Made by a program: the position numbers and the translations under genes. Below, in pieces: positions 1,712-36,747 of a stretch of 64,000 nucleotides of DNA. The notes beneath the pieces were generated by a model. The model saw only the letters and a list, made by a program, of their open reading frames with translations, made no database searches and was not told the origin of the DNA. Each line of letters opens with the position of its first letter. Positions within the stretch are counted from its first letter, which is position 1. The DNA comes from an uncultured bacterium. GTDB taxonomy: Bacteria > Desulfobacterota_D > UBA1144 > Nemesobacterales > UBA2774. Location of the stretch: NCBI GenBank assembly GCA_963705505.1, contig CAVPJU010000010.1, positions 28,488 to 92,487 on the forward strand. The letters run 5' to 3'.

Positions 1712-2626
1712 TTACACCCGCCGCGGCCCCTTTTCCAGTCGGCCCCAGCCGAGCGCAATCAGGGCGGAGGCTAAAGTCTGGAATATGCCGTACACCAATA
1801 CCGCGGTCACGGCCGGCGTGCCCGGGAAGCTCCCCGTGGCAATGACGAGGCTCACACTGACATTGCGCACGGATGTCGTGAGCGCCATACTCTTACGGTT
1901 CGCGCTCCCGGATTCGCTCAGCAGAAAACCCGCCGCCAGGGATAAAATAAGGAGCGCGATCATTCCGGCGTAACCTCTCATGCTGACCGCGGTGAGCACG
2001 TGGAACTGGACTACAAGGATAAACCCCAGAACCAGTAGATTGAGAGCCTTGCTTAACTGGTTGAACGGTTTCTGCAGCCTTGCTGCTAGTGCAGGACGCC
2101 ACTGGCGAACGAAAAGCCCGATGCACAAAGGCATTAATTGAGTCACGAGGAGCGTGATGAGAACCCTGCCCGCATCTACGCTAAGCGTTTCGCCTCCCCC
2201 CATCAACGGCAGTAGCAAATACAACAGCACCGGGGCGACGATCGCAGACGATCCCGCTAGAATTACCATCAACCCGACCGCTGCGGACACATTGCCTTTG
2301 GCGATCGCGGTGAAGGGCGGAGCGTAGGGAGCGCCGGGGCACGCAGCGACAATGAGAAACCCCGCGGCCACCAGGGGATCGGGATGAAACAAAAGCAGTA
2401 ATCCAAGCACGGCAAGGGGAACGCAAACATAGTTGGCAAGCGCGGCACGCGTCACGAGGCGGAGGTTCCGGGCAACGCCCATTATCTCCGCAAACCTCAC
2501 GCTCAGACCGATGGCCACCATCATCTCAAACAGAGTGATCGTAATGAGGATGTTGATCAGCTTGTCAATCGTCATCGCGGTACCCCATATCGGCCGGGTG
2601 AGGACTATGCTATCGCTCACGAACAA
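1712..2626 (-). CDS. bile acid:sodium symporter (BASS/SBF) family transporter
   Basis: A 304-aa polytopic membrane protein with Gly/Pro-rich helices, resembling SBF-family transporters. Confidence 0.6.
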   Translation of the reverse strand: MFVSDSIVLTRPIWGTAMTIDKLINILITITLFEMMVAIGLSVRFAEIMGVARNLRLVTRAALANYVCVPLAVLGLLLLFHPDPLVAAGFLIVAACPGAPYAPPFTAIAKGNVSAAVGLMVILAGSSAIVAPVLLYLLLPLMGGGETLSVDAGRVLITLLVTQLMPLCIGLFVRQWRPALAARLQKPFNQLSKALNLLVLGFILVVQFHVLTAVSMRGYAGMIALLILSLAAGFLLSESGSANRKSMALTTSVRNVSVSLVIATGSFPGTPAVTAVLVYGIFQTLASALIALGWGRLEKGPRRV

Positions 2627-2947
2627 TAACCTTCATGGACTATAGCATACTTAGAGCTGTTCATCGTCCGTCGGCCGGGATTCGGGCAGCTCAAAAAAAC
2701 TTTTAGTGGATGAGAGTTAGTTAAATAGTAGTGGTCAAGACCGTCCGGTTAAAATAGATTTAGCCAACTTCCCTAAGCAAACATTAAGAAATGTAACCCG
2801 AAATCTGTATGTTTTTCTGACAATCTCATTCATTTCATCGATTGTAAAATAACAAAACAATCAATATTTCTAGAATGATACACCGAATCCCCAAATTGGC
2901 ATGAAATGTGCCCATAATTAATAAGAAGCATAAAAGGGAGGCGTAGC

Positions 2948-4672
2948 ATGAAAAGAATCCTGTTTGCAATATTCTTGATTTGTTCTTTTTCAATCGTTGT
3001 CAATCAAACTGCATTCTGCAAGGGAAACGACGCCAGGGCCGGTCAGGCCTACGAGCATAAGGAGACTCTCGATATAGTCGCTTTGGTAGATGACGCGGCA
3101 GAGTTGGTCAGCACCAAAGGAGAAGCGGCCTTTAGCGATTTCCGTGTGTCCGGCAGCCGCTGGCGGCAGGGAGATATGTATATATTTGTGCTGGATACTC
3201 AGGGGAACATGCTTGTTCATCCCGATCCGTCAATGGAAGGCAAGAACGAGCTTGATCTGAAGGACATCAACGGGAAACCCGTCATCCGGGGACTCATCGG
3301 CGCAGCTATGGTTCCAGGCAAATCCGAAGGCTGGTACCACTACGAATGGCCTGTTCCGGGGGGCATTCTTCCCCGATGGAAGAGCACCTACGTCCGGCTC
3401 GTGACGGCTCCCGACGGCAAGAGTTATATCGTGGGCAGCGGCATCTACAACGACCGCATGGAAAGAGCCTTCGTCGTGGATATGGTGCGGGACGCAGTCG
3501 CGCAGATCGAGAAGAACGGCGAGGCGGCTTTTAGCCTCTTCCATGATAGGACAGGTCCATTTATCGCAAAGGACGCCTACATTTTTGTCATCGACCCGAG
3601 CGGAGTCGATCTCGTCAATCCGGGCTTTCCGAACCTGGAAGGCCGCAACATTCTGGACGTGAAGGACACCCAGGGAAGGATGTTGATCCGGGAGATGCTC
3701 CGGGTCGTCGAAACCAGCGGTTCCGGCTGGGTCGACTATATGTGGCCCAAACCGGGAGAAAGTGTCTCCACTCAGAAATCCGCTTATGTGAGCAAGGCGA
3801 AGATGGGCGACCAGTGGGTGCTGGTAGGTAGCGGTGTATACCTTGCCGATGCTCCCAAAGCGGTCCAGGCCGGCGAGAAGATGACCGCTTCGGAGCTGAT
3901 GACGCTTGTCCGGGAAGGAGCAGCGGTCCTGGAAAAGCAAGGCGAGAAGGCTTATCCCGAGTTCCGACAGAAAGGATCAAAGTGGTTCCGTGATGATACT
4001 TATTTCTTTGTCTGGACCATGGACGGAACCAGAGTTTTTCATGCCGCGGATCCATCACTCGAGGGCCGGAATGCAAGCGGTGTCAAGGATGTCCTGGGAA
4101 GACCCTATGGCAAGATGTTCCTGGAGACGGCTGCCGGACCTGCCGGTGAGGGGTGGGTCCACTACATGTATCCCGAGCCGGGGAACATTTTCCCGACGTG
4201 GAAGTCAACTTTCGTGAAGCGGGTGACCTTTCCTTCCGGGAAAGAGTACATCATCGGTTCCGGTATCTACAACATGCAGATGGATAAGCCCTTCGTCGAG
4301 GATGTGGTGAATCGTGCCGCTGCCCTTGTCGCGGAACAGGGGAAGGATGCCTTTAGCCAATTGCGCGACAAGACGGGGCCCTTCATATTTATGGATACCT
4401 ATGTGTTTGTCGATACACCCGATGGCACCGAGCTGGTGAATCCCGCCCAGCCCAGCCTGGAAGGAAAGAATCTCATTGACCTGAGGGATCTGAAGGGGAA
4501 AGCGGTAGTCCGGGAGGAAATCGCCGCCGCCATGAAAGACGGCAGCGCCTGGCTCGATCTCTACTGGTACAAGCCCGGACAAAATACTCCTGCACGAAAG
4601 CGGACCTTCGTGAGGAAGGTGCAATCCGGTGAGGAGACTTATATCGTCGGCTCGGGTTTCTACCCGGAATAG
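2948..4672 (+). CDS. secreted protein with four tandem single-Cache (sCache_2-like) domains
   Basis: N-terminal signal peptide (MKRILFAIFLICSFSIVVNQTAFC). Four ~140-aa repeats each carry the motif YIFV.D..G..LVHP......G.N..D..D..G.......W..Y.WP.PG.......KS.YV......YI.GSGIY. RBS AAGGGAGG lies upstream. Confidence 0.7.
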   Translation: MKRILFAIFLICSFSIVVNQTAFCKGNDARAGQAYEHKETLDIVALVDDAAELVSTKGEAAFSDFRVSGSRWRQGDMYIFVLDTQGNMLVHPDPSMEGKNELDLKDINGKPVIRGLIGAAMVPGKSEGWYHYEWPVPGGILPRWKSTYVRLVTAPDGKSYIVGSGIYNDRMERAFVVDMVRDAVAQIEKNGEAAFSLFHDRTGPFIAKDAYIFVIDPSGVDLVNPGFPNLEGRNILDVKDTQGRMLIREMLRVVETSGSGWVDYMWPKPGESVSTQKSAYVSKAKMGDQWVLVGSGVYLADAPKAVQAGEKMTASELMTLVREGAAVLEKQGEKAYPEFRQKGSKWFRDDTYFFVWTMDGTRVFHAADPSLEGRNASGVKDVLGRPYGKMFLETAAGPAGEGWVHYMYPEPGNIFPTWKSTFVKRVTFPSGKEYIIGSGIYNMQMDKPFVEDVVNRAAALVAEQGKDAFSQLRDKTGPFIFMDTYVFVDTPDGTELVNPAQPSLEGKNLIDLRDLKGKAVVREEIAAAMKDGSAWLDLYWYKPGQNTPARKRTFVRKVQSGEETYIVGSGFYPE

Positions 4673-4837
4673 CAAATGAATATCTGCGCTAAGCTTGCAA
4701 GAAACGAATAAGGGTGAAATTCACGGAACGATAAAATGGTAAAAGCTGTGCTGGAGGCTGAATGAGCGGTCTGCCAGTCGGATAAAACGGCTGGGAGAAG
4801 GCGGGCCGGACTTGCAGAAAATCTATGAATTAGCTAA

Positions 4838-4867
4838 TGTTATTAATATGATAGAATACGTAACGCC
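4838..4867 (+). repeat. direct repeat copy 1 (28/30 identical to 12042..12071); contains a pseudo-start ATG ATA GAA TAC GTA ACG CCA TAG
   Basis: tgttattaatatgatagaatacgtaacgcc here versus tgttattaatatgatagattacgtaactcc at the radical-SAM gene start. Confidence 0.7.
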
Positions 4868-4914
4868 ATAGGTCAGTTATGTATTCCAATATCACAATCA
4901 ACGCATATGTCGGT

Positions 4915-7299
4915 TTAGTGCGTGTTCCATTTCCAGTCCCGAATCTCGGGCATGTCTTCGCCGTGTTTGTGAATATAGTGTTTGTGGTCGAGCAGTTTGT
5001 CGCGGATGAATTGTTTGGCGTAGGCGCCCCTCGAGCCCAGACTCGAAACACGATCGATCACGTCACCGACCAAATGAAATCGGTCGAGGTCATTCAGGAC
5101 CGCCATGTCGAAGGGAGTTGTAGTGGTTCCCTCTTCCTTGTAACCGCGAACGTGCAAGTTCTTGTGGTTATTTCGGCGATAGGTCAGACGATGAATCAAC
5201 CAGGGATAACCATGATAGGCGAAGATGATCGGTTTGTCCTTGGTGAAGAGCAGATCGAAGTCATTGTCACTCAGTCCATGGGGATGCTCGCTTGCAGGCT
5301 GGAGCTTCATCAAGTCCACCACGTTAATCACGCGGATCTTTAGGTCTGGTAAGTGGTGTCGCAGTATCTCCACAGCTGCCAGCGTTTCCAAGGTCGGGAC
5401 ATCTCCCGCACAAGCCATCACTACATCCGGCTCGTCCCCCTCATCGTTGCTGGCCCACTCCCAAATGCCCAGCCCAGCCGTGCAGTGTTTAACGGCGGAA
5501 TCAATATCCAGCCATTGGAGCCCCGGCTGTTTGCCTGCAACAATAACATTGACGTAATGGCGGCTGCGCAGACAATGGTCGGCCACCGACAGCAAGGTGT
5601 TGGCATCAGGCGGTAGATATACGCGGATGATATTGGACTTCTTATTCACCACATGGTCGATGAAACCCGGGTCCTGGTGACTGAAACCGTTGTGGTCTTG
5701 ACGCCACACATGAGAGGTGAGCAGATAATTCAGCGAGGCGATGGGGCGTCTCCACGGGATGTGACGTGTCACCTTGAGCCATTTGGCATGTTGGTTGAAC
5801 ATCGAGTCCACGATGTGAATGAACGCTTCATAGCAGGAGAACAACCCGTGGCGACCGGTGAGGAGATAACCTTCCAACCAACCCTGACACAAATGCTCGC
5901 TCAGCACCTCCATTACCCGGCCGTCGGGTGATACATGGTCATCCGTTTTCAGAATTTCAGCGGTGGAGACGCGGTCGGTGATGTCGAACAAGTTCGTGAG
6001 ACGGTTCGACGCGGTTTCATCGGGGCCAAAAACCCGGAAGTTACGTTCTTCCCAATTCATTTTCATGACGTCCCGTACGAACGCTCCCATGATCCGAGTC
6101 GCTTCTGCAATTTCTGTGCCAGGCTGGGGAACAGCCACTGCATAATCTCGAAAATCCGGCATTTTCAGATCGCGAAGGAGAATCCCTCCATTAGCATGAG
6201 GATTGGCCCCCATTCGCCGCTCGCCCTTCGGGGCCAGTTCAGCGAGTTCTGGAATGAGTTTACCGCTCTCATCGAAAAGCTCCTCAGGCTTGTAGCTCTT
6301 CATCCATTGCTCCAGCATTTTCAGGTGCTGGGGGTTCGTCCCAATTTCTGAAAGAGGCACTTGGTGCGAGCGAAACGTGCCCTCGACCGGCAGGCCATCC
6401 ACTTCCTTCGGGCCTGTCCAACCCTTGGGTGTGCGCAAAATGATCATGGGCCACTGCGGCCGCTTCTTAAATCCTCCAGCGCGAGCCGTAGTCTGGATGT
6501 GTGTGATCTCCTCGATGATCGTATCCAGTGTGCCGGCCATGACCTGGTGAATTTCTTCGGGCTCTTCCCCCTCGACGAAATATGGATGGTAGCCATACCC
6601 ACGAAAGAGTTGGTCCAATTCCTCGTGACTGATACGCGCTAGGATGGTGGGGTTGGCAATCTTGTAGCCATTCAGGTGAAGAATGGGCAGGACCCCTCCA
6701 TCGTGGACGGGATTGAGGAATTTGTTCGAGTGCCAACTGGCGGCCAATGGACCAGTTTCTGCTTCGCCATCGCCGACTACACATGCGACCAGCAGGCCAG
6801 GATTGTCAAACGCAGCGCCATAAGCGTGGGCTAGCGAGTAGCCAAGTTCCCCTCCTTCGTTAATCGAGCCTGGTGTTTCCGGAGCGACGTGGCTGGGAAT
6901 CCCGCCGGGAAAGGAAAACTGGGTAAACAACTTTTTCATACCCGGTTCATCCTGCGAGACTTCCGGGTAGAATTCGCTGTAGGTGTCCTCCAGATAAGTG
7001 TTGGCTACCAATCCGGGTCCTCCGTGACCAGGACCGGCGACATAGATCATGTCGAGGTTATATTTTTTGATGACCCGGTTGAGATGAACATAGATAAAGT
7101 TCAAACCGGGCGTGGTGCCCCAATGACCGAGGAGTCGTGGCTTTACGTGCTCAAGCTTGAGCGGTTTCTTCAACCGCGGGTTGTCACAAAGATAAATTTG
7201 GCCGACAGATAGATAGTTGGCGGCACGCCAATAGGCATTCATCTTTCGCAGCTCATCGTCTGTGAGCGTCTTATCCGCAGGGTTCGTCTTTTTATTCAT
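4915..7299 (-). CDS. xfp: xylulose-5-phosphate/fructose-6-phosphate phosphoketolase
   Basis: 794/799 aa with the characteristic N-terminus ...[15 protein letters not shown]..., [13 protein letters not shown] and the TPP-binding region. The likely ATG start ([10 protein letters not shown]) is preceded by GAGGAG; the ORF track extends it 5 codons to a TTG. Confidence 0.93.
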
Positions 7300-7463
7300 C
7301 GATCTTCTCCTCAACGCTCACTGAGACTGATTAAGATGCATATACTCATTCATATATAAAATATACTTTCGTCATTCGGAAATAACTAATATGGTTATTC
7401 GTTCACACACGCCGAAGTAATATTGTCTCCGGCTTCATGGACGTTCCCGCGTTAAAAGTCGAG

Positions 7464-10007
7464 TCACCGCTGCCACAGGATGTGAGGGGCTTCCAGGGGA
7501 ACCACAACCCCGGGGTAGCTTGGTATCACTCGCGCCGTATAGTCAGTCGCCGGGCGTGTTGCAGGCACTCGTGCGCTATAGACGTAGACGCTAACTGCCC
7601 CCTCAGGTTGTCGGACCTGTGTCATTTCCTGCCGCACGGAACCGCCGCCGTTGAGTCCCCGGGCATAAAGCTCTACTCGTACCGCACTCGGGTCGAGGTC
7701 ATTAAGATAGACCTGAATTTCAAAGACATATTCTTCCCCATCGGTCTCAACCTTCTCGTCGCTTAAGCGCAGCGTATCCCAATTTTCTTTCAGAGCCTGT
7801 TGCCAATTGACTAGCTGCACACCCACTGCGCCTTTATCATATGCGCGTTTACGGCAGGCAGTTGCAGCCGGGAGGTAGTGATCCTCGGTATATTCGCGGA
7901 CTGTGCGGGCGGCGGAAAAACGCGGCGTCAATTGCGCCATGCTTTCCCGCATCCGCGCCACCCAAGCAGTGGGAATGCCCTTCGCGTCCCGGTTGTAGAA
8001 CTCGGGGATCACCTCGTGTTCGAGCAAGTCGTAGAGCGCTTCCGCTTCGGCAACGTCCCAGGCCGGATCGTTGCCATGTTCCCGGCCGTCACCCAACGCC
8101 CACCCCACTTCCGGAGTGTAGGCTTCCGCCCACCAGCCATCCAACTCCGAGAGGTTGATACCACCATTGACGAGCACCTTCATGCCGCTCGTTCCGCTGG
8201 CCTCCCATGGCCGTCGCGGCGTGTTGATCCAGACATCCACACCCTGTACCAGACGCTCAGCCAATGACATGTCGTAGTCACCGAGGAACATCACATGGTT
8301 GCGCGCCTTGGGCCTCAGGATGAATTGGATCCATTCACGGATCATGGCCTGGCCCGGATGGTCCGCCGGATGGCTCTTGCCGGCAATGATGAGTTGCGCG
8401 GGGCGCTGAGGGTTCGTTAACAGGCGAAGCAACCGGTCCGGGTCGTGCAGAAGGAGATTCGGTCTTTTATAGGTTGCGAAGCGGCGCGCAAAGCCCAACG
8501 TCAGTGTGTTGGGATTGAATAGGCGATTCACCCCCTTTGCCTTGGACGCCATTCCGGAGGCGGTCATTTGCTTTGTCAATCGTTCTCGAGCGTATTCAAT
8601 GAGAGACTTGCGGACAGTGGAGCGCAGTTGCCACAGCTTGGCGTCGGGGACGCGGCGTATGTCCTGGTCCAGGGTTTCCGTCGTTCTCCGCCAGGGGTGT
8701 TTCCCGCAAGCCTCGGTCCAAAGGCCGTCGGCGGCTGCCGAGTCCCAAGTTGTCATGTGGACTCCATTGGTCACGTGCCCGACCGGCACTTCATCCTCCG
8801 GCCAGCTAGGGAAAAGAGGTTGAAAAATGCGCCGGCTTACCTCCCCATGCAGGCGGCTCACCCCGTTTATCGCTCCACTTCCTCGAGCCGCAAGGTAAGC
8901 CATATTGAAAGGCTCTGACGAGTCGTTCGGGTTTTGCCGGCCAAGGGCCAGCAAATCGTAGAGTGCAATGCCGAGCTTATTTCGAGCGTAATCACCGAGG
9001 TACTGCTCGATGAGGTCAGGAGCGAAGCTGTCAAAACCGGCAGCCACCGGCGTGTGTGTGGTGAAGAGGTTACCAGCTCGTGTGACGGCAAGGGCGACCT
9101 CGAAAGATTGTCCTGTTTCCTCCATGAAACATCGTGCGCGTTCCAGCACCGCAAAAGCCGCATGCCCTTCATTCAGGTGGCAGACTTCCGGCTGGATGCC
9201 GAGCGAACGAAGTAGCCGCCAGCCGCCGATCCCTAGTACTAGTTCTTGCTTGAGGCGCAGCTCTGGCCCGCCCCCGTAAAGCTCGCTTGTAATTCCTCTA
9301 TGAGCCGGGAAGTTCACCGCGTCATTGCTGTCCAGCAGGTAAAGCTTCACTCTGCCAACCTGGACCTGCCATGCACGCAGCGAGACCGAGTAACCGGGTA
9401 ATTCGATCTCCACCCGCAACCACTCCCCGCTCGATTCCCGCAGGGGTAGGATCGGCAATTGACCGGCATCATTGAAGGGGAAGAGAGCCTGTTGCGCCCC
9501 GTCCTTGTCGATCACCTGGCGAAAATAGCCCTGCTGGTAGAGCAGCCCCACGGCGACCACCGGCACACCCAGGTCGCTGGCGGCTTTAAGCTGGTCGCCG
9601 GCCACATTGCCAAGCCCGCCTGAATAGATGGGGAGAGCTTCGCTCAACATGAATTCCATGCTGAAATAAGCGATATAGATCAGGGGTGCTTCTGGATGAT
9701 GTTGCTGAAACCATGCAGGCGTCCGGGCTGCCGACTGCCTATCCTGCAGCACGTCACTCAGCTGTTTGCGAAAGTCGGAATCGGATAAGACCCGCTCGAG
9801 CTGTTTCCTCGAGACAGTTTGCAGGACGACCCAGGGATTATGCGTACGTTCCCATAGCGCTGGATCAAGTTGCATCCAGATTCCATCGGCGGCATGATTC
9901 CACGCCGAGCGCATGTCCAGCGCCAACTCTGCGAGCGAATCGAATCCCTCCAGATCAGTGGGTAGAAAAGAGTAGATCGGGTTGTTAATGAGTGCTTGTT
10001 TGCTCAT
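7464..10007 (-). CDS. glgP: alpha-glucan (glycogen) phosphorylase, GT35 / GlgP family
   Basis: 847 aa with the DUF3417 N-terminal region and a GT35 phosphorylase core (..EASGTSGMK.. pyridoxal-phosphate lysine motif). A good RBS lies upstream. Confidence 0.88.
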   Translation of the reverse strand: MSKQALINNPIYSFLPTDLEGFDSLAELALDMRSAWNHAADGIWMQLDPALWERTHNPWVVLQTVSRKQLERVLSDSDFRKQLSDVLQDRQSAARTPAWFQQHHPEAPLIYIAYFSMEFMLSEALPIYSGGLGNVAGDQLKAASDLGVPVVAVGLLYQQGYFRQVIDKDGAQQALFPFNDAGQLPILPLRESSGEWLRVEIELPGYSVSLRAWQVQVGRVKLYLLDSNDAVNFPAHRGITSELYGGGPELRLKQELVLGIGGWRLLRSLGIQPEVCHLNEGHAAFAVLERARCFMEETGQSFEVALAVTRAGNLFTTHTPVAAGFDSFAPDLIEQYLGDYARNKLGIALYDLLALGRQNPNDSSEPFNMAYLAARGSGAINGVSRLHGEVSRRIFQPLFPSWPEDEVPVGHVTNGVHMTTWDSAAADGLWTEACGKHPWRRTTETLDQDIRRVPDAKLWQLRSTVRKSLIEYARERLTKQMTASGMASKAKGVNRLFNPNTLTLGFARRFATYKRPNLLLHDPDRLLRLLTNPQRPAQLIIAGKSHPADHPGQAMIREWIQFILRPKARNHVMFLGDYDMSLAERLVQGVDVWINTPRRPWEASGTSGMKVLVNGGINLSELDGWWAEAYTPEVGWALGDGREHGNDPAWDVAEAEALYDLLEHEVIPEFYNRDAKGIPTAWVARMRESMAQLTPRFSAARTVREYTEDHYLPAATACRKRAYDKGAVGVQLVNWQQALKENWDTLRLSDEKVETDGEEYVFEIQVYLNDLDPSAVRVELYARGLNGGGSVRQEMTQVRQPEGAVSVYVYSARVPATRPATDYTARVIPSYPGVVVPLEAPHILWQR

Positions 10008-10121
10008 GGTTTCTCCTTCAGATTTTTCCGTAAAGAAAATCCGGAACTACATTTACTATGTTTTTCCTTCGCTGCAATACACATCAACAGGCCTGCTTCA
10101 TATGTTGCGATAACGGCTCGA

Positions 10122-11786
10122 TCATGTATCGTTGCTGCTCCTTGCCGCCTTCAAAGCGCAGTTGACGATTGCCTGTGCCTCTTCCTGGATGCGGCGCAAA
10201 TGATCCTTCCCACTAAAACTCTCCGCATAAATCTTGTAGATATCCTCCGTCCCGGAAGGACGAGCCGCGAACCATCCGGTCTCGGCAATAATCTTCAATC
10301 CCCCGATGGAACCGCCATTGCCCGGTGCTTGAGTGAGTATGGCTTGGATTTTTTCGCCCGCCAGATCTGTGGATCGAACCTGGTCGGGTGAGAGTCTTTC
10401 CAGCGCTTCCTTTTGCTCCTGGGTGGCTGGCGCCTCAATCCGTTCGTAAACGGGCTCACCTAACTCACGAGTAAGCTTCCGGTAGATCTCGCCAGGGTCG
10501 CAGCCCATACGTGCTGTGATCTCTGCCGAGAGCAGCGCTGGGATGATACCGTCTTTATCCGTGGTCCATACACTACCATCAAGGCGGAGAAAAGAAGCTC
10601 CCGCGCTTTCTTCACCGACGAAACCAAGCGAACCATCAAGGAGACCATCAACGAACCACTTAAAGCCAACCGGCACCTCATAGAGCTTCCTACCGAGCTT
10701 GGCGGTGACGCGATCTATCATCTGGCTACTTACAACTGTCTTACCTACCGCCGCTTCCTGCCGCCACTTAGGTCGGTATTGGAAAAGGTAGAAGATGGCG
10801 ACTGACAGATAGTCATTGGGCGGCAACAAACCCACACTCTTGGTAACAATGCCGTGTCGGTCATGATCTGTGTCGCAGGCGAATGCGATCTCGAAACGAT
10901 CCTTCAATTTGATTAATCGCTGCATCACATAGGGCGAGGAAGGATCCATGCGTACCTGGCCATCCCAATCAACGGTCATGAAACGAAAGGTCGGATCGAC
11001 CATCTCGTTTACGATCTTGAGGTTCAACCCGTAGCGATCAGCAATCGGACCCCAATAGTGGACCCCGGCTCCACCGAGTGGATCCACGCCCAGGCTGATC
11101 TTCGAACCGCGGATGGCGTCCATGTCAATTACACTGCCGAGGTCGTTCACATAAGCATCAAGGTAGTCGTACCGGTGCGTCGTGTCTGCGCGAAGAGCTT
11201 TTTCAAAGGAAATTCTTTTTACGCCTTGGAGGCGATTTTTGAGAAACTCATTTGCCTTCGCCTCGATCCAGCCGGTAATGTCAGGTCCCGCCGGCCCGCC
11301 GGTGGGGGGATTGTACTTTAAGCCACCATCATCCGGCGGGTTGTGCGAGGGCGTGATCACAATGCCATCGGCAACTCCTGTTGTGCGGTTGCGGTTGTAC
11401 ATTAGAATCGCGTGAGAAACGGCAGGAGTCGGCGTATATTCATCACGCTCAGCGATCATGACATCCAATCCGTTTGCCGCCAGCACTTCAAGCACACTGG
11501 CAAAAGCCGGCACGGAAAGTGCATGGGTGTCCATACCCAGGAACAGCGGGCCATCGATCTTCTGCTGCTGGCGGTACAGGCAAATGGCCTGACTGATTGA
11601 GAGAATATGCCATTCATTGAAAGTCTTCTCGAATGATGAACCACGATGCCCCGAGGTACCGAACACGACCCTTTCTTCAGTAACCGAATGATCAGGCATC
11701 TCACTATAATAAGCAGTGACTAGCTTGGGTATATTAACCAGCCTTGAAGGCTTGACAGGCTTTCCTGCAAAATGATTCAAATTCAT
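10122..11786 (-). CDS. pgm: phosphoglucomutase (alpha-D-glucose-phosphate specific)
   Basis: 554 aa with the active-site TPSHNP and GGPAG.. motifs of the PGM/PMM family. Confidence 0.9.
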   Translation of the reverse strand: MNLNHFAGKPVKPSRLVNIPKLVTAYYSEMPDHSVTEERVVFGTSGHRGSSFEKTFNEWHILSISQAICLYRQQQKIDGPLFLGMDTHALSVPAFASVLEVLAANGLDVMIAERDEYTPTPAVSHAILMYNRNRTTGVADGIVITPSHNPPDDGGLKYNPPTGGPAGPDITGWIEAKANEFLKNRLQGVKRISFEKALRADTTHRYDYLDAYVNDLGSVIDMDAIRGSKISLGVDPLGGAGVHYWGPIADRYGLNLKIVNEMVDPTFRFMTVDWDGQVRMDPSSPYVMQRLIKLKDRFEIAFACDTDHDRHGIVTKSVGLLPPNDYLSVAIFYLFQYRPKWRQEAAVGKTVVSSQMIDRVTAKLGRKLYEVPVGFKWFVDGLLDGSLGFVGEESAGASFLRLDGSVWTTDKDGIIPALLSAEITARMGCDPGEIYRKLTRELGEPVYERIEAPATQEQKEALERLSPDQVRSTDLAGEKIQAILTQAPGNGGSIGGLKIIAETGWFAARPSGTEDIYKIYAESFSGKDHLRRIQEEAQAIVNCALKAARSSNDT

Positions 11787-12041
11787 TGCATAACGACCTG
11801 ATGCTGTTCTAAATCATGTATGAATAAATAAGACAATAAAGAATCCGGAAGCCGCTATATCAAAAACCAAGACCCCAACCTTATTCTAAACAATTATTAT
11901 TAAGGTATTGTGAAAATCAGAGCAATAGAAACCGATGAATGAATTTTTTATCAGATTTTTACGCGAGACTATATGTTAATTCGTCTGATATTTCGCATGC
12001 TTTAGCGAACGTGATTTGTAAAAATCCTGAACATTTGTTAG

Positions 12042-12071
12042 TGTTATTAATATGATAGATTACGTAACTCC
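12042..12071 (+). repeat. direct repeat copy 2, overlapping the true start of the radical-SAM gene
   Basis: See copy 1. Confidence 0.7.
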
Positions 12072-12948
12072 CTACTTCAGGCCCCCGAGCGAGGGTAATA
12101 GCTTCATTCTCCAGGCGACGATAGGCTGCTCCCACAACCAGTGCACTTACTGTGCAATGTACAGAGAGGAGGAGCAGAGGTTCCGCATACGTCCGATGGA
12201 AGAGATAAAGCAGATCATAGACGAAGCGAGCGAATCGGGACAAATAGACGACCGTGTATTCATAGCCGACGGCAATGCGCTTGTACTTTCGCAGAAGAAG
12301 CTCATCGAAATCATGGAGTATCTCAGAGAAAAATCCCCCGGCATCGGGCGTATCAGGATGTATGCGAACGTCGGCGATATACTGAGGAAAGGGGTCGGGA
12401 ACCTGAAAGAGCTGAAGATGCTCGGCCTCGACATGGTTTATATAGGTTTTGAGAGCGGGGACGATATAGTCCTCGAGCGGATAAAAAAAGGGGCGAGCTT
12501 TGATCAGACGGTGAAGGCGTCCCGGATGCTGAAGGAAGCGGGGATAATGAACTCAGCCATGGTGCTTCTCGGCATGGGCGGCGTCGAGAGGAGTGCCGAG
12601 CACGCGGAAGCGACAGGCAGGCTCCTCACTGCGTGCGACCCCGAATACGTCGGCGCGCTTTCCCTCCAGCTCCGTCCGGGTGCGCCCGTGTACGACGAAT
12701 GGAAGAGGGGGGAATTCGAGCTTCCGGGTAAGTTTCAGATGATCACGGAGCTTCGAATACTCGTCGAGAATACGGAGCTTACAGACGGGTACTTCTTCTC
12801 GAACCACATCTCGAATTATCTGCCTATCAAGGCGAAGTTCCCCGAGGACAAGGAAGAGGTGCTCCGGCAGATAAGAGCCGTGCTCGAGAGCGGGGACGAG
12901 TCGCTTCTCCGCCCCGATTATTACAGGGACGTCATAAACCAGTACTGA
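12052..12948 (+). CDS. radical SAM protein
   Basis: 298 aa with the CxxxCxxC motif (CSHNQCTYC) near the N-terminus. Confidence 0.7.
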   Translation: MIDYVTPYFRPPSEGNSFILQATIGCSHNQCTYCAMYREEEQRFRIRPMEEIKQIIDEASESGQIDDRVFIADGNALVLSQKKLIEIMEYLREKSPGIGRIRMYANVGDILRKGVGNLKELKMLGLDMVYIGFESGDDIVLERIKKGASFDQTVKASRMLKEAGIMNSAMVLLGMGGVERSAEHAEATGRLLTACDPEYVGALSLQLRPGAPVYDEWKRGEFELPGKFQMITELRILVENTELTDGYFFSNHISNYLPIKAKFPEDKEEVLRQIRAVLESGDESLLRPDYYRDVINQY

Positions 12949-36457: not shown

Positions 36458-36747
36458 TTTTGTTACCTCCTTGAATTAAAAGCAGAATTTTCTACTATAA
36501 GGCGGCAATTGTCAAACCCAGGGGCGTTTAAATAATGAGACAGGGCGCGCTGTGCCGGTTTTGCATTTTTTGTAATCCCGTTCTGACGTCATTTGTGACT
36601 GTTTTTCCTGCTTAATTTTCAACATTTAATATTTATTTGTTCCTAACCCCTTGAAAACATTCGATTGGTGACTAGGTTGTATATTGGCACGCAAATTGCA
36701 TGTAAATAATACATGACGTTGTAAAAATTTCAACAGGAGGTAGGTAA

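Follow-up and report, generated by a model that had tools for sequence, protein, structure and literature searches.

One may ask what a protein composed of sensor domains does when it carries nothing to which a signal could be passed. This question is raised by a gene of an uncultured bacterium (GTDB lineage Desulfobacterota_D; UBA1144; Nemesobacterales; UBA2774), located at 2948..4672 (+ strand; ATG start, stop codon included) of the window, i.e., the whole stretch of 64,000 nucleotides analysed here (contig CAVPJU010000010.1 of assembly GCA_963705505.1, positions 28,488 to 92,487 of the forward strand). The gene encodes a 574-aa protein with four sCache_2 modules. Cache domains are the main extracellular sensor modules of prokaryotes, in which a conformational change is transmitted via a transmembrane helix to an output, and most sCache_2 domains occur in methyl-accepting chemotaxis proteins (MCPs) and kinases (PMC4822843); more than 90% of Cache domains are reported to be fused to signalling outputs (PMC12889525). 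Since Cache domains are nearly always found with outputs, the output-less window protein represents an atypical but real architecture. The answer that we tentatively favour, with a confidence slightly short of even, is that it would be an exported protein under its own promoter, which binds a small anionic metabolite autonomously and multivalently by two kinds of sCache_2 pocket.

The initial annotation, made from the sequence alone, described a signal peptide followed by four sCache_2-type domains, with no transmembrane segment and no output domain, and this description was confirmed. In Pfam, sCache_2 (PF17200) is matched in four stretches (E=8.4e-69, 230.9 bits, cut-off 25) and dCache_2 (PF08269) in three stretches that span module pairs (E=2.4e-74, 250.6 bits, cut-off 26.5), and nothing beyond these two families was found there; Pfam and NCBIfam together revealed neither an output domain nor an enzyme family, and no further hydrophobic segment was found beyond the leader. 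The best NCBIfam similarities, all below threshold, are to the sensor parts of MctS (a monocarboxylate kinase) and CtpM (a malate chemoreceptor). When searched singly, every module matches solved sCache_2 sensor domains of chemoreceptors: R1 (A-type, aa 36-172; 3053..3463, +) matches PDB 5g4y (8e-12), and R2 (B-type, aa 173-304; 3464..3859, +), R3 (A'-type, aa 305-446; 3860..4285, +) and R4 (B'-type, aa 447-574; 4286..4669, +) match PDB 4k08 (2e-15, 2.6e-11 and 5.8e-10, respectively). The four modules are 32-43% identical in pairwise comparisons and the first half of the protein is 43% identical to the second (E=6e-82); judged from these sequences, the pattern is A-B-A'-B', a duplication of a two-module unit.

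Structure modelling is in line with such arrangement. The protein has the sCache_2 fold, in which a long helix at the N-terminus leads into a PAS-like alpha/beta core, and all fold matches in the structure search were Cache/PAS, with sensor domains as the only structural neighbours. In the full-length model the linker of about aa 299-313 (3842..3886, +), at the R2/R3 boundary, is the sole weak internal stretch, where the block mean of the predicted local distance difference test (pLDDT) drops to 55. The isolated A-B unit (residues 33-304), modelled on an alignment of two-module relatives, reached a pLDDT of 94.2 and a predicted template modelling score of 0.88. Since the A-B unit is rigid and the R2/R3 linker is weak, the four-module protein appears as two rigid units on a flexible tether. 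A Foldseek search of the PDB found no chain resembling the whole protein or the two-module arrangement; the best query-normalised TM-score was 0.40, from single-module matches, and the A-B unit gave a TM-score of about 0.3 with solved double-Cache sensor domains, those structures being of dCache_1 type.

Is this gene simply what is left of a receptor? The usual place of sCache_2 in MCPs and kinases, together with the automatic annotation of homologs by the Joint Genome Institute as 'signal transduction histidine kinase', would speak for the truncated or decaying remnant of a chemoreceptor or histidine kinase, its transmembrane and output parts having been lost, and the initial annotation had pointed out that homologs consistently fused to such domains would indicate a truncated gene. 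The relatives speak clearly against it. The best 120 matches among 5.8 billion proteins are 73-93% identical and 531-765 aa long (most 547-606 aa), and they contain Cache domains only, with no MCP or kinase fusion. When one genome per species was scanned (185,579 GTDB species genomes), 315 related stretches were recovered, of which the best 80 are near full length; the stand-alone orthologs, about 550-600 aa in size, are full length at hundreds of genomic sites. A Pfam scan of 20 longer relatives detected no MCPsignal, HisKA, HATPase or GGDEF, and an output domain is lacking from every relative examined. The window gene itself has a ribosome-binding site (GGGAGG, 2936..2941, +, 6 nt 5' of the ATG), a promoter region of its own and a clean stop that is followed by 240 bp of non-coding DNA, and its dN/dS against orthologs is 0.07-0.21. 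The gene is intact and under purifying selection, and the receptor-fragment explanation is refuted, with a probability that is close to nil.

When 1.84 billion cluster representatives were searched, about two of them stood for the close four-module family, and the remaining matches are mostly two-module proteins of about 290-320 aa that are 35-50% identical to either half of the window protein; these are of the secreted type, with a hydrophobic leader in 102 of 104. Relatives of the window organism also have variants of five modules, in which a further canonical sCache_2 stands at the N-terminus (P0019, P0071). Tandem paralogs are present at five loci (L044, L059, L061, L068, L082), mostly of Bacteroidota; L068 belongs to a Pyrinomonadaceae (Acidobacteriota) metagenome-assembled genome (MAG). 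The literature searched contained no paper in which the accessions from Geotalea or Dadabacteria are named, nor any study devoted to tandem sCache_2 proteins that lack an output.

If the protein is not a receptor fragment, do its modules still bind ligands? The reference is PscD, in which Tyr90, His103, Tyr143 and Lys156 form hydrogen bonds with the propionate carboxylate, Trp92 and Trp145 sandwich it and Phe126 forms the back wall (PMC5062169). These contact residues were carried to R1-R4 through HMMER alignments. In the order Tyr90/Trp92/His103/Phe126/Tyr143/Trp145/Lys156, the equivalents are Y78, F80, H91, I113, Y132, W134 and K145 in R1 (further pocket position L116), Y211, F213, N224, I247, Y264, W266 and K277 in R2 (further position M250), Y352, F354, H365, G388, Y406, Y408 and K419 in R3 (further position F391), and Y485, F487, N498, V521, L538, W540 and K551 in R4 (further position I525). 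The number of identical positions is 5/7, 4/7, 4/7 and 3/7 for R1 to R4, and that of retained hydrogen-bonding residues 4/4, 3/4, 4/4 and 2/4; the Tyr/His/Tyr/Lys set is complete in the A modules, and in the B modules the His gives way to Asn.

The pocket positions are also those that evolution has preferentially kept. Across 79 orthologs, 15 of the 32 pocket-equivalent positions are invariant vs 50 of 507 elsewhere (odds ratio 8, Fisher p=4e-7); the invariant residues include Y78, F80, H91 and K145 of R1, Y211, F213, Y264, W266 and K277 of R2, and N498 of R4. The alternation of His in A and Asn or Asp in B is retained in 105 diverse two-module relatives and is thus old and maintained. Since Asn takes the place of His in the B modules, the A and B types probably differ in ligand or affinity. 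Altogether, the pocket conservation speaks for two kinds of small-ligand site, four functional sites in all, the predicted ligand being most likely a carboxylate-bearing or similar anionic compound. Strict membership of the subgroup of sCache_2 domains that bind C2/C3 carboxylates (PscD, McpP, Adeh_3718) was considered as well and rejected, the seven-residue pocket being incomplete in every module; with flanking pocket residues unlike those of the C2/C3 group, the window protein falls outside that specificity class, its pocket being carboxylate-like. A scan of 2400-5100 with Rfam at a permissive threshold found no riboswitch, only two chance snoRNA-type matches.

The next question concerns the compartment in which these sites would act. 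The first 24 residues of the window protein (2948..3019, +) form a signal-peptide-like leader, as seen in the sequence and in the AF2 (AlphaFold2) model: in the leader MKRILFAIFLICSFSIVVNQTAFC a hydrophobic core comes after a basic n-region, its last residue is Cys24, and the model shows a helix at residues 2-13 and disorder at residues 12-32. The protein is probably exported, presumably to the periplasm, and Cys24, which is kept in the closest relatives (contexts TAFC/TALC/NALC), could possibly serve as its anchor. Some orthologs have canonical lipoboxes, i.e., LLQAC in Nitrospira and LLPGC or LLPAC in Methylobacter.

A hydrophobic leader is present in 61 of the 79 orthologs and absent from about 17 (about 21%), the maximum of N-terminal hydrophobicity being cleanly bimodal. 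The leaderless orthologs (L001, L016, L019, L025, L026, L028, L043, L053, L055, L060, L064, L067, L069, L075, L076, L077, L081) have an in-frame stop shortly upstream of the start, and the finished genome of Geotalea uraniireducens Rf4, with the ortholog ABQ27237.1, is among their carriers. They are scattered over the similarity tree, the leaderless state having arisen several times; one leaderless subclade unites Nitrospirota, Betaproteobacteria and Geotalea at 79-86% identity. The predicted location of these orthologs is the cytoplasm, an unusual one for the Cache family.

Does the protein work with a partner? The initial annotation had left two options, a free periplasmic binding or scavenging protein and a partner of a transporter or sensor encoded elsewhere, and had drawn attention to a divergently oriented BASS-family symporter. 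The identity of this neighbour (1712..2626, - strand) stood up as an SBF/BASS-type transporter gene (PF01758, 1.4e-21; 84 bits against TIGR00841, under the cut-off of 326 bits), its relevance as context did not. Neighbours were compared by clustering of open reading frames (ORFs) over 84 loci and by a census of Pfam domains in 125 directly flanking genes. SBF was found in only 2 of the 125, i.e., in the window and in the closest relative, L007; in L005 and L034, the relatives that come next, the place of the BASS gene is taken by a universal stress protein. The BASS gene is an incidental neighbour and no conserved partner. ORF clustering over the 84 loci found no neighbour in more than 10 of them, and neither approach found a neighbour conserved across 80 loci; the census counted ABM (antibiotic biosynthesis monooxygenase-like) 7 times, a DegP-like protease, a periplasmic-binding-protein family and a deaminase 3 times each, and SBF twice. 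The sole recurrent neighbour is clade-specific: an ABM protein of about 112 aa adjoins the Cache gene in about nine Acidobacteriota loci (L011, L012, L033, L041, L045, L054, L064, L074, L039). The neighbourhoods of three two-module relatives are mutually unrelated, being a methionine-salvage-like operon, a pilus/secretion operon and a site beside insertion sequence elements.

The main rival to autonomous binding is that the ligand-loaded protein docks, as an accessory binding protein, on a membrane receptor or transporter encoded elsewhere, in the manner of MBP-Tar, LuxP-LuxQ, TorT-TorS or AibA/B-TlpB. There is ample documentation of receptors that respond to solute-binding proteins, the two genes often being unlinked (PMC8050422); certain relatives are fused to solute-binding domains (Bmp, Peripla_BP_4, ABC_sub_bind), and the almost universal leader of the two-module relatives fits a periplasmic role. 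In L088 (5055-6891), within a type II secretion/pilus-like operon, a two-module relative lies on the same strand directly 3' of a 295-aa membrane protein in which Pfam recognises only HAMP, an arrangement which suggests a possible split receptor in that lineage. Set against this, no neighbour is conserved, the leaderless fifth of the orthologs would be out of the reach of a periplasmic partner, and the fold is that of Cache, whereas transporters recognise the Venus-flytrap fold. Dependence on a specific partner is also hard to square with a gene that passes from phylum to phylum singly, its own promoter included. We regard the docking explanation as unlikely, yet it deserves to be taken seriously. 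Of the two options left by the initial annotation, free binding or scavenging fits best, the pockets being carboxylate-type and preferentially invariant, and a transporter or sensor partner has lost ground.

The spread itself is wide. In the species-genome scan the hosts span at least 10 phyla and include Desulfobacterota, Dadabacteria, Binatota, Acidobacteriota, Nitrospirota, Beta- and Gammaproteobacteria, Bacteroidota, Gemmatimonadota, Planctomycetota and Myxococcota, mostly from soil, sediment and freshwater. The nearest neighbour in the tree often belongs to another phylum, at 80-90% identity. The dS between the window gene and orthologs of other phyla (0.24-1.05) is unsaturated, which argues for horizontal transfer as a single gene. 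Since the GC content of the gene follows that of the host (r=0.93, with GC3 ranging from 35 to 93%), the transfers are of varied age and not all recent. Exceptional constraint was considered as an explanation of the 65-92% cross-phylum identity and rejected in favour of transfer, the dN/dS being ordinary and the dS unsaturated.

The longer relatives bring another explanation into view. The extra parts of the twenty scanned are solute-binding-protein domains, cupin, autotransporter beta-domains and additional Cache modules. Fused relatives such as P0131 (695 aa), P0153, P0264 and P0169 have a C-terminal cupin or Bmp/PnrA-like, Peripla_BP_4 or ABC_sub_bind domain, and giant relatives have 4 to 13 sCache_2 modules, namely P0132 (2099 aa, 13 stretches), P0185 (2142 aa), P0263 (1718 aa) and P0212 (1179 aa). 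P0185 and P0263 end in a C-terminal autotransporter beta-domain, which implies poly-Cache passengers on the cell surface. It could be argued that the family binds polymeric or surface acidic material (exopolysaccharide, uronic-acid polymers, humic substances) multivalently and acts as adhesin or matrix organiser: chains of 5 to 13 modules, the implied surface display, the frequent tandem paralogs at Bacteroidota loci and the soil, sediment and freshwater hosts would all suit such a role. Solved sCache_2 homologs have small closed pockets, however (PMC5062169), leaderless orthologs exist, and the flanking-gene census showed no linkage to polysaccharide or adhesion genes, all of which makes a polymer binder improbable.

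More improbable still is a cofactor-carrying or catalytic protein, e.g., one with a redox role as for the stand-alone haem-binding Cache. Cache proteins that stand alone and carry covalent haem are known, a redox role having been proposed for them (PMC12889525), and the presence in two cell compartments would fit an enzyme. On the other hand, the sole cysteines of the window protein, C12 and C24, both lie within the leader, so that the mature part has none, no CXXCH motif was found anywhere in the protein, no enzyme family was matched, the structural neighbours are all sensor domains, and the invariant residues correspond to the ligand pocket of receptor homologs.

The gene also appears to have a promoter of its own. 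A conserved upstream block lies at 2771..2947 (+), the homology to L005 (a Dadabacteria MAG) and L034 starting exactly at 2771; the block is 89-91% identical to both, and the genes further 5' differ. Long conserved upstream blocks are likewise seen in the alignment of the window, L007, L005, L034 and L006. The promoter block moves together with the Cache gene. It contains a sigma-54-type -24/-12 element, TGGCATGAAATGTGCC (2897..2912, +), with the canonical GG/GC spacing and the GC 37 nt before the ATG, and a motif of this type is found at the same position in L005, L007, L034 and L006. In the window the pattern TGGCAYN6TGCH has three matches vs 0.38 expected; the two other exact matches are TGGCACGCAAATTGCA at 36685-36700 (+) and TGGCACAGAAATTGCA at 6106-6121 (-), the latter inside a phosphoketolase gene. 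No activator of the GAFTGA type is encoded in the 64-kb window. A family-wide sigma-54 promoter was tried and rejected (18/83 loci on the sense strand vs 11/83 on the control strand, not significant), the motif being kept in the closest clade only. From its sequence context, the Cache gene is apparently a single-gene unit under its own sigma-54-type promoter.

How could such a protein work? We propose that it would be made with its leader and sent to the periplasm, where it may be held via Cys24. The A-B and A'-B' units would be rigid and joined by the flexible tether, and the small pocket of each module would take a carboxylate-type group, as is the case for C2-C4 organic acids in chemoreceptor sCache_2 domains. 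With as many as four sites in each chain, it would act by capture, buffering or sequestration rather than by transmission of a signal. The lack of a transmembrane helix, of an output and of a conserved partner, together with the leaderless fifth of the orthologs, makes autonomous multivalent binding the most likely explanation, and a self-contained function is also suggested by the tolerance of both compartments and by transfer as one gene. Extended to the whole family, the proposal would describe an unrecognised, non-signalling class of Cache proteins, i.e., self-sufficient multivalent metabolite sponges built of non-equivalent A-B pairs, acting in periplasm or cytoplasm and carried as single-gene cassettes by soil and freshwater bacteria of more than 10 phyla; this generalisation is possible and doubtful rather than probable. 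The initial annotation, which on the whole was supported in part, was silent on the A-B/A'-B' duplication, the size of the family and its spread between phyla, the leaderless forms and the sigma-54-type promoter.

Several observations weigh against autonomous binding of a small acid by an exported protein. sCache_2 domains can also bind non-carboxylates, e.g., urea in TlpB. Of the PscD pocket, Trp92 is replaced by Phe in all modules and Phe126 by Ile, Ile, Gly and Val; Tyr and Lys belong to the general sCache_2 consensus, so that their invariance may be partly structural. The context of Cys24, TAFC, is not a canonical lipobox, and export is read from sequence only. Conservation of the sigma-54 motif is confined to the closest clade, in which it extends to the entire upstream region. 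A dN/dS of 0.1-0.2 is ordinary and the high cross-phylum identity reflects mostly transfer, with little bearing on function. Finally, binding proteins that act on receptors are often encoded away from them, so that the missing neighbour is compatible with a partner located elsewhere.

The surroundings of the gene have a history of their own. In L007 and L005 a radical-SAM gene (12052-12948 of the window) lies directly 3' of the Cache gene, and relative to these syntenic loci the block 4877-12032 of the window is an insertion of 7.1 kb. It contains, all on the - strand, the phosphoketolase (4915-7314), a glucan phosphorylase-like gene (7464-10007) and a phosphoglucomutase (10122-11786); since these sugar-phosphate genes belong to an insertion, they have no functional tie to the Cache gene. 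A stretch of 27 bp (4838..4864, +) repeats the 5' end of the radical-SAM gene (26/27 identical to 12042-12068); it is a mark of the junction and unrelated to the function of the Cache protein. A mobile Cache cassette with terminal repeats was considered and rejected, the end of the homology at 4876 being the junction of the adjacent insertion. In L034, a second contig of the MAG of L007, a different insert of about 5.2 kb (4609-9957) is located at the Cache/radical-SAM junction and contains a TauD-family dioxygenase, three ORFs without a Pfam match and a 94-bp copy of the start of the radical-SAM gene. The Cache/radical-SAM junction may be a hotspot of recombination or insertion. On the other side, the segment 924-1672 of the window is absent from the otherwise syntenic L007; it holds an ORF (962-1423, -; 153 aa) with no Pfam or NCBIfam match.

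Why does this protein matter? It is a clean example of a different Cache design, in which sCache_2 modules are chained without output. In the literature searched, the output-less tandem design, the A/B alternation, the leaderless members and the cross-phylum spread are undescribed, the domain itself being well known. Should the proteins be autonomous binders, this would be a new, non-signalling use of the Cache fold, an extracellular sensor fold repurposed as a mobile device for small-acid capture, buffering or detoxification, and it would offer a natural, ready scaffold on which capture proteins or biosensors for small acids could be built; there is precedent in a fluorescent sensor made from a Cache domain that binds lactate (PDB 9ebx, found in the structure search). 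The family is also a simple system for asking what sets His-type apart from Asn-type pockets. At present its value is that of a well-defined, testable lead rather than a discovery.

With what known systems can it be compared? The carboxylate chemoreceptors (PscD-SD, 5G4Y; Adeh_3718, 4K08; the Vibrio parahaemolyticus MCP, 4EXO/2QHK; McpP) place a single domain between two transmembrane helices and continue into an MCP, whereas the window protein has four chained modules, no membrane span and no output; with neither transmembrane helices nor an output, it does not belong to the Cache-type transmembrane receptors (MCP, histidine kinase or GGDEF). Its substitutions at Trp92 and Phe126 and the Asn of the B modules, compared with the chemoreceptor set, make a different ligand range likely. 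Periplasmic solute-binding proteins resemble it as soluble, output-less ligand binders (export and binding being predicted for the window protein), and some relatives are fused to domains of this kind. The window protein, in contrast, is Cache/PAS-like with four sites per chain and has leaderless orthologs; it lacks the Venus-flytrap fold and a conserved adjoining transporter, and with no adjacent ABC, TRAP or TTT genes it falls outside that class. The Tll0287-like sCache_heme proteins are stand-alone Cache proteins with covalent haem and a proposed redox role, whose lone architecture was called highly unusual (PMC12889525, bioRxiv 2026). They share with the window protein a Cache fold without signalling output, but are single modules with CXXCH in an inserted helix; the window protein has four modules and no haem motif, CXXCH being absent, and is not one of them. 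dCache_2 (PF08269) is described as a duplication of sCache_2 within receptors, and the window protein is likewise built on two sCache_2-derived modules; in its A-B unit, however, the two modules are complete and follow one another, a separate helix belonging to each, and there is no receptor around them.

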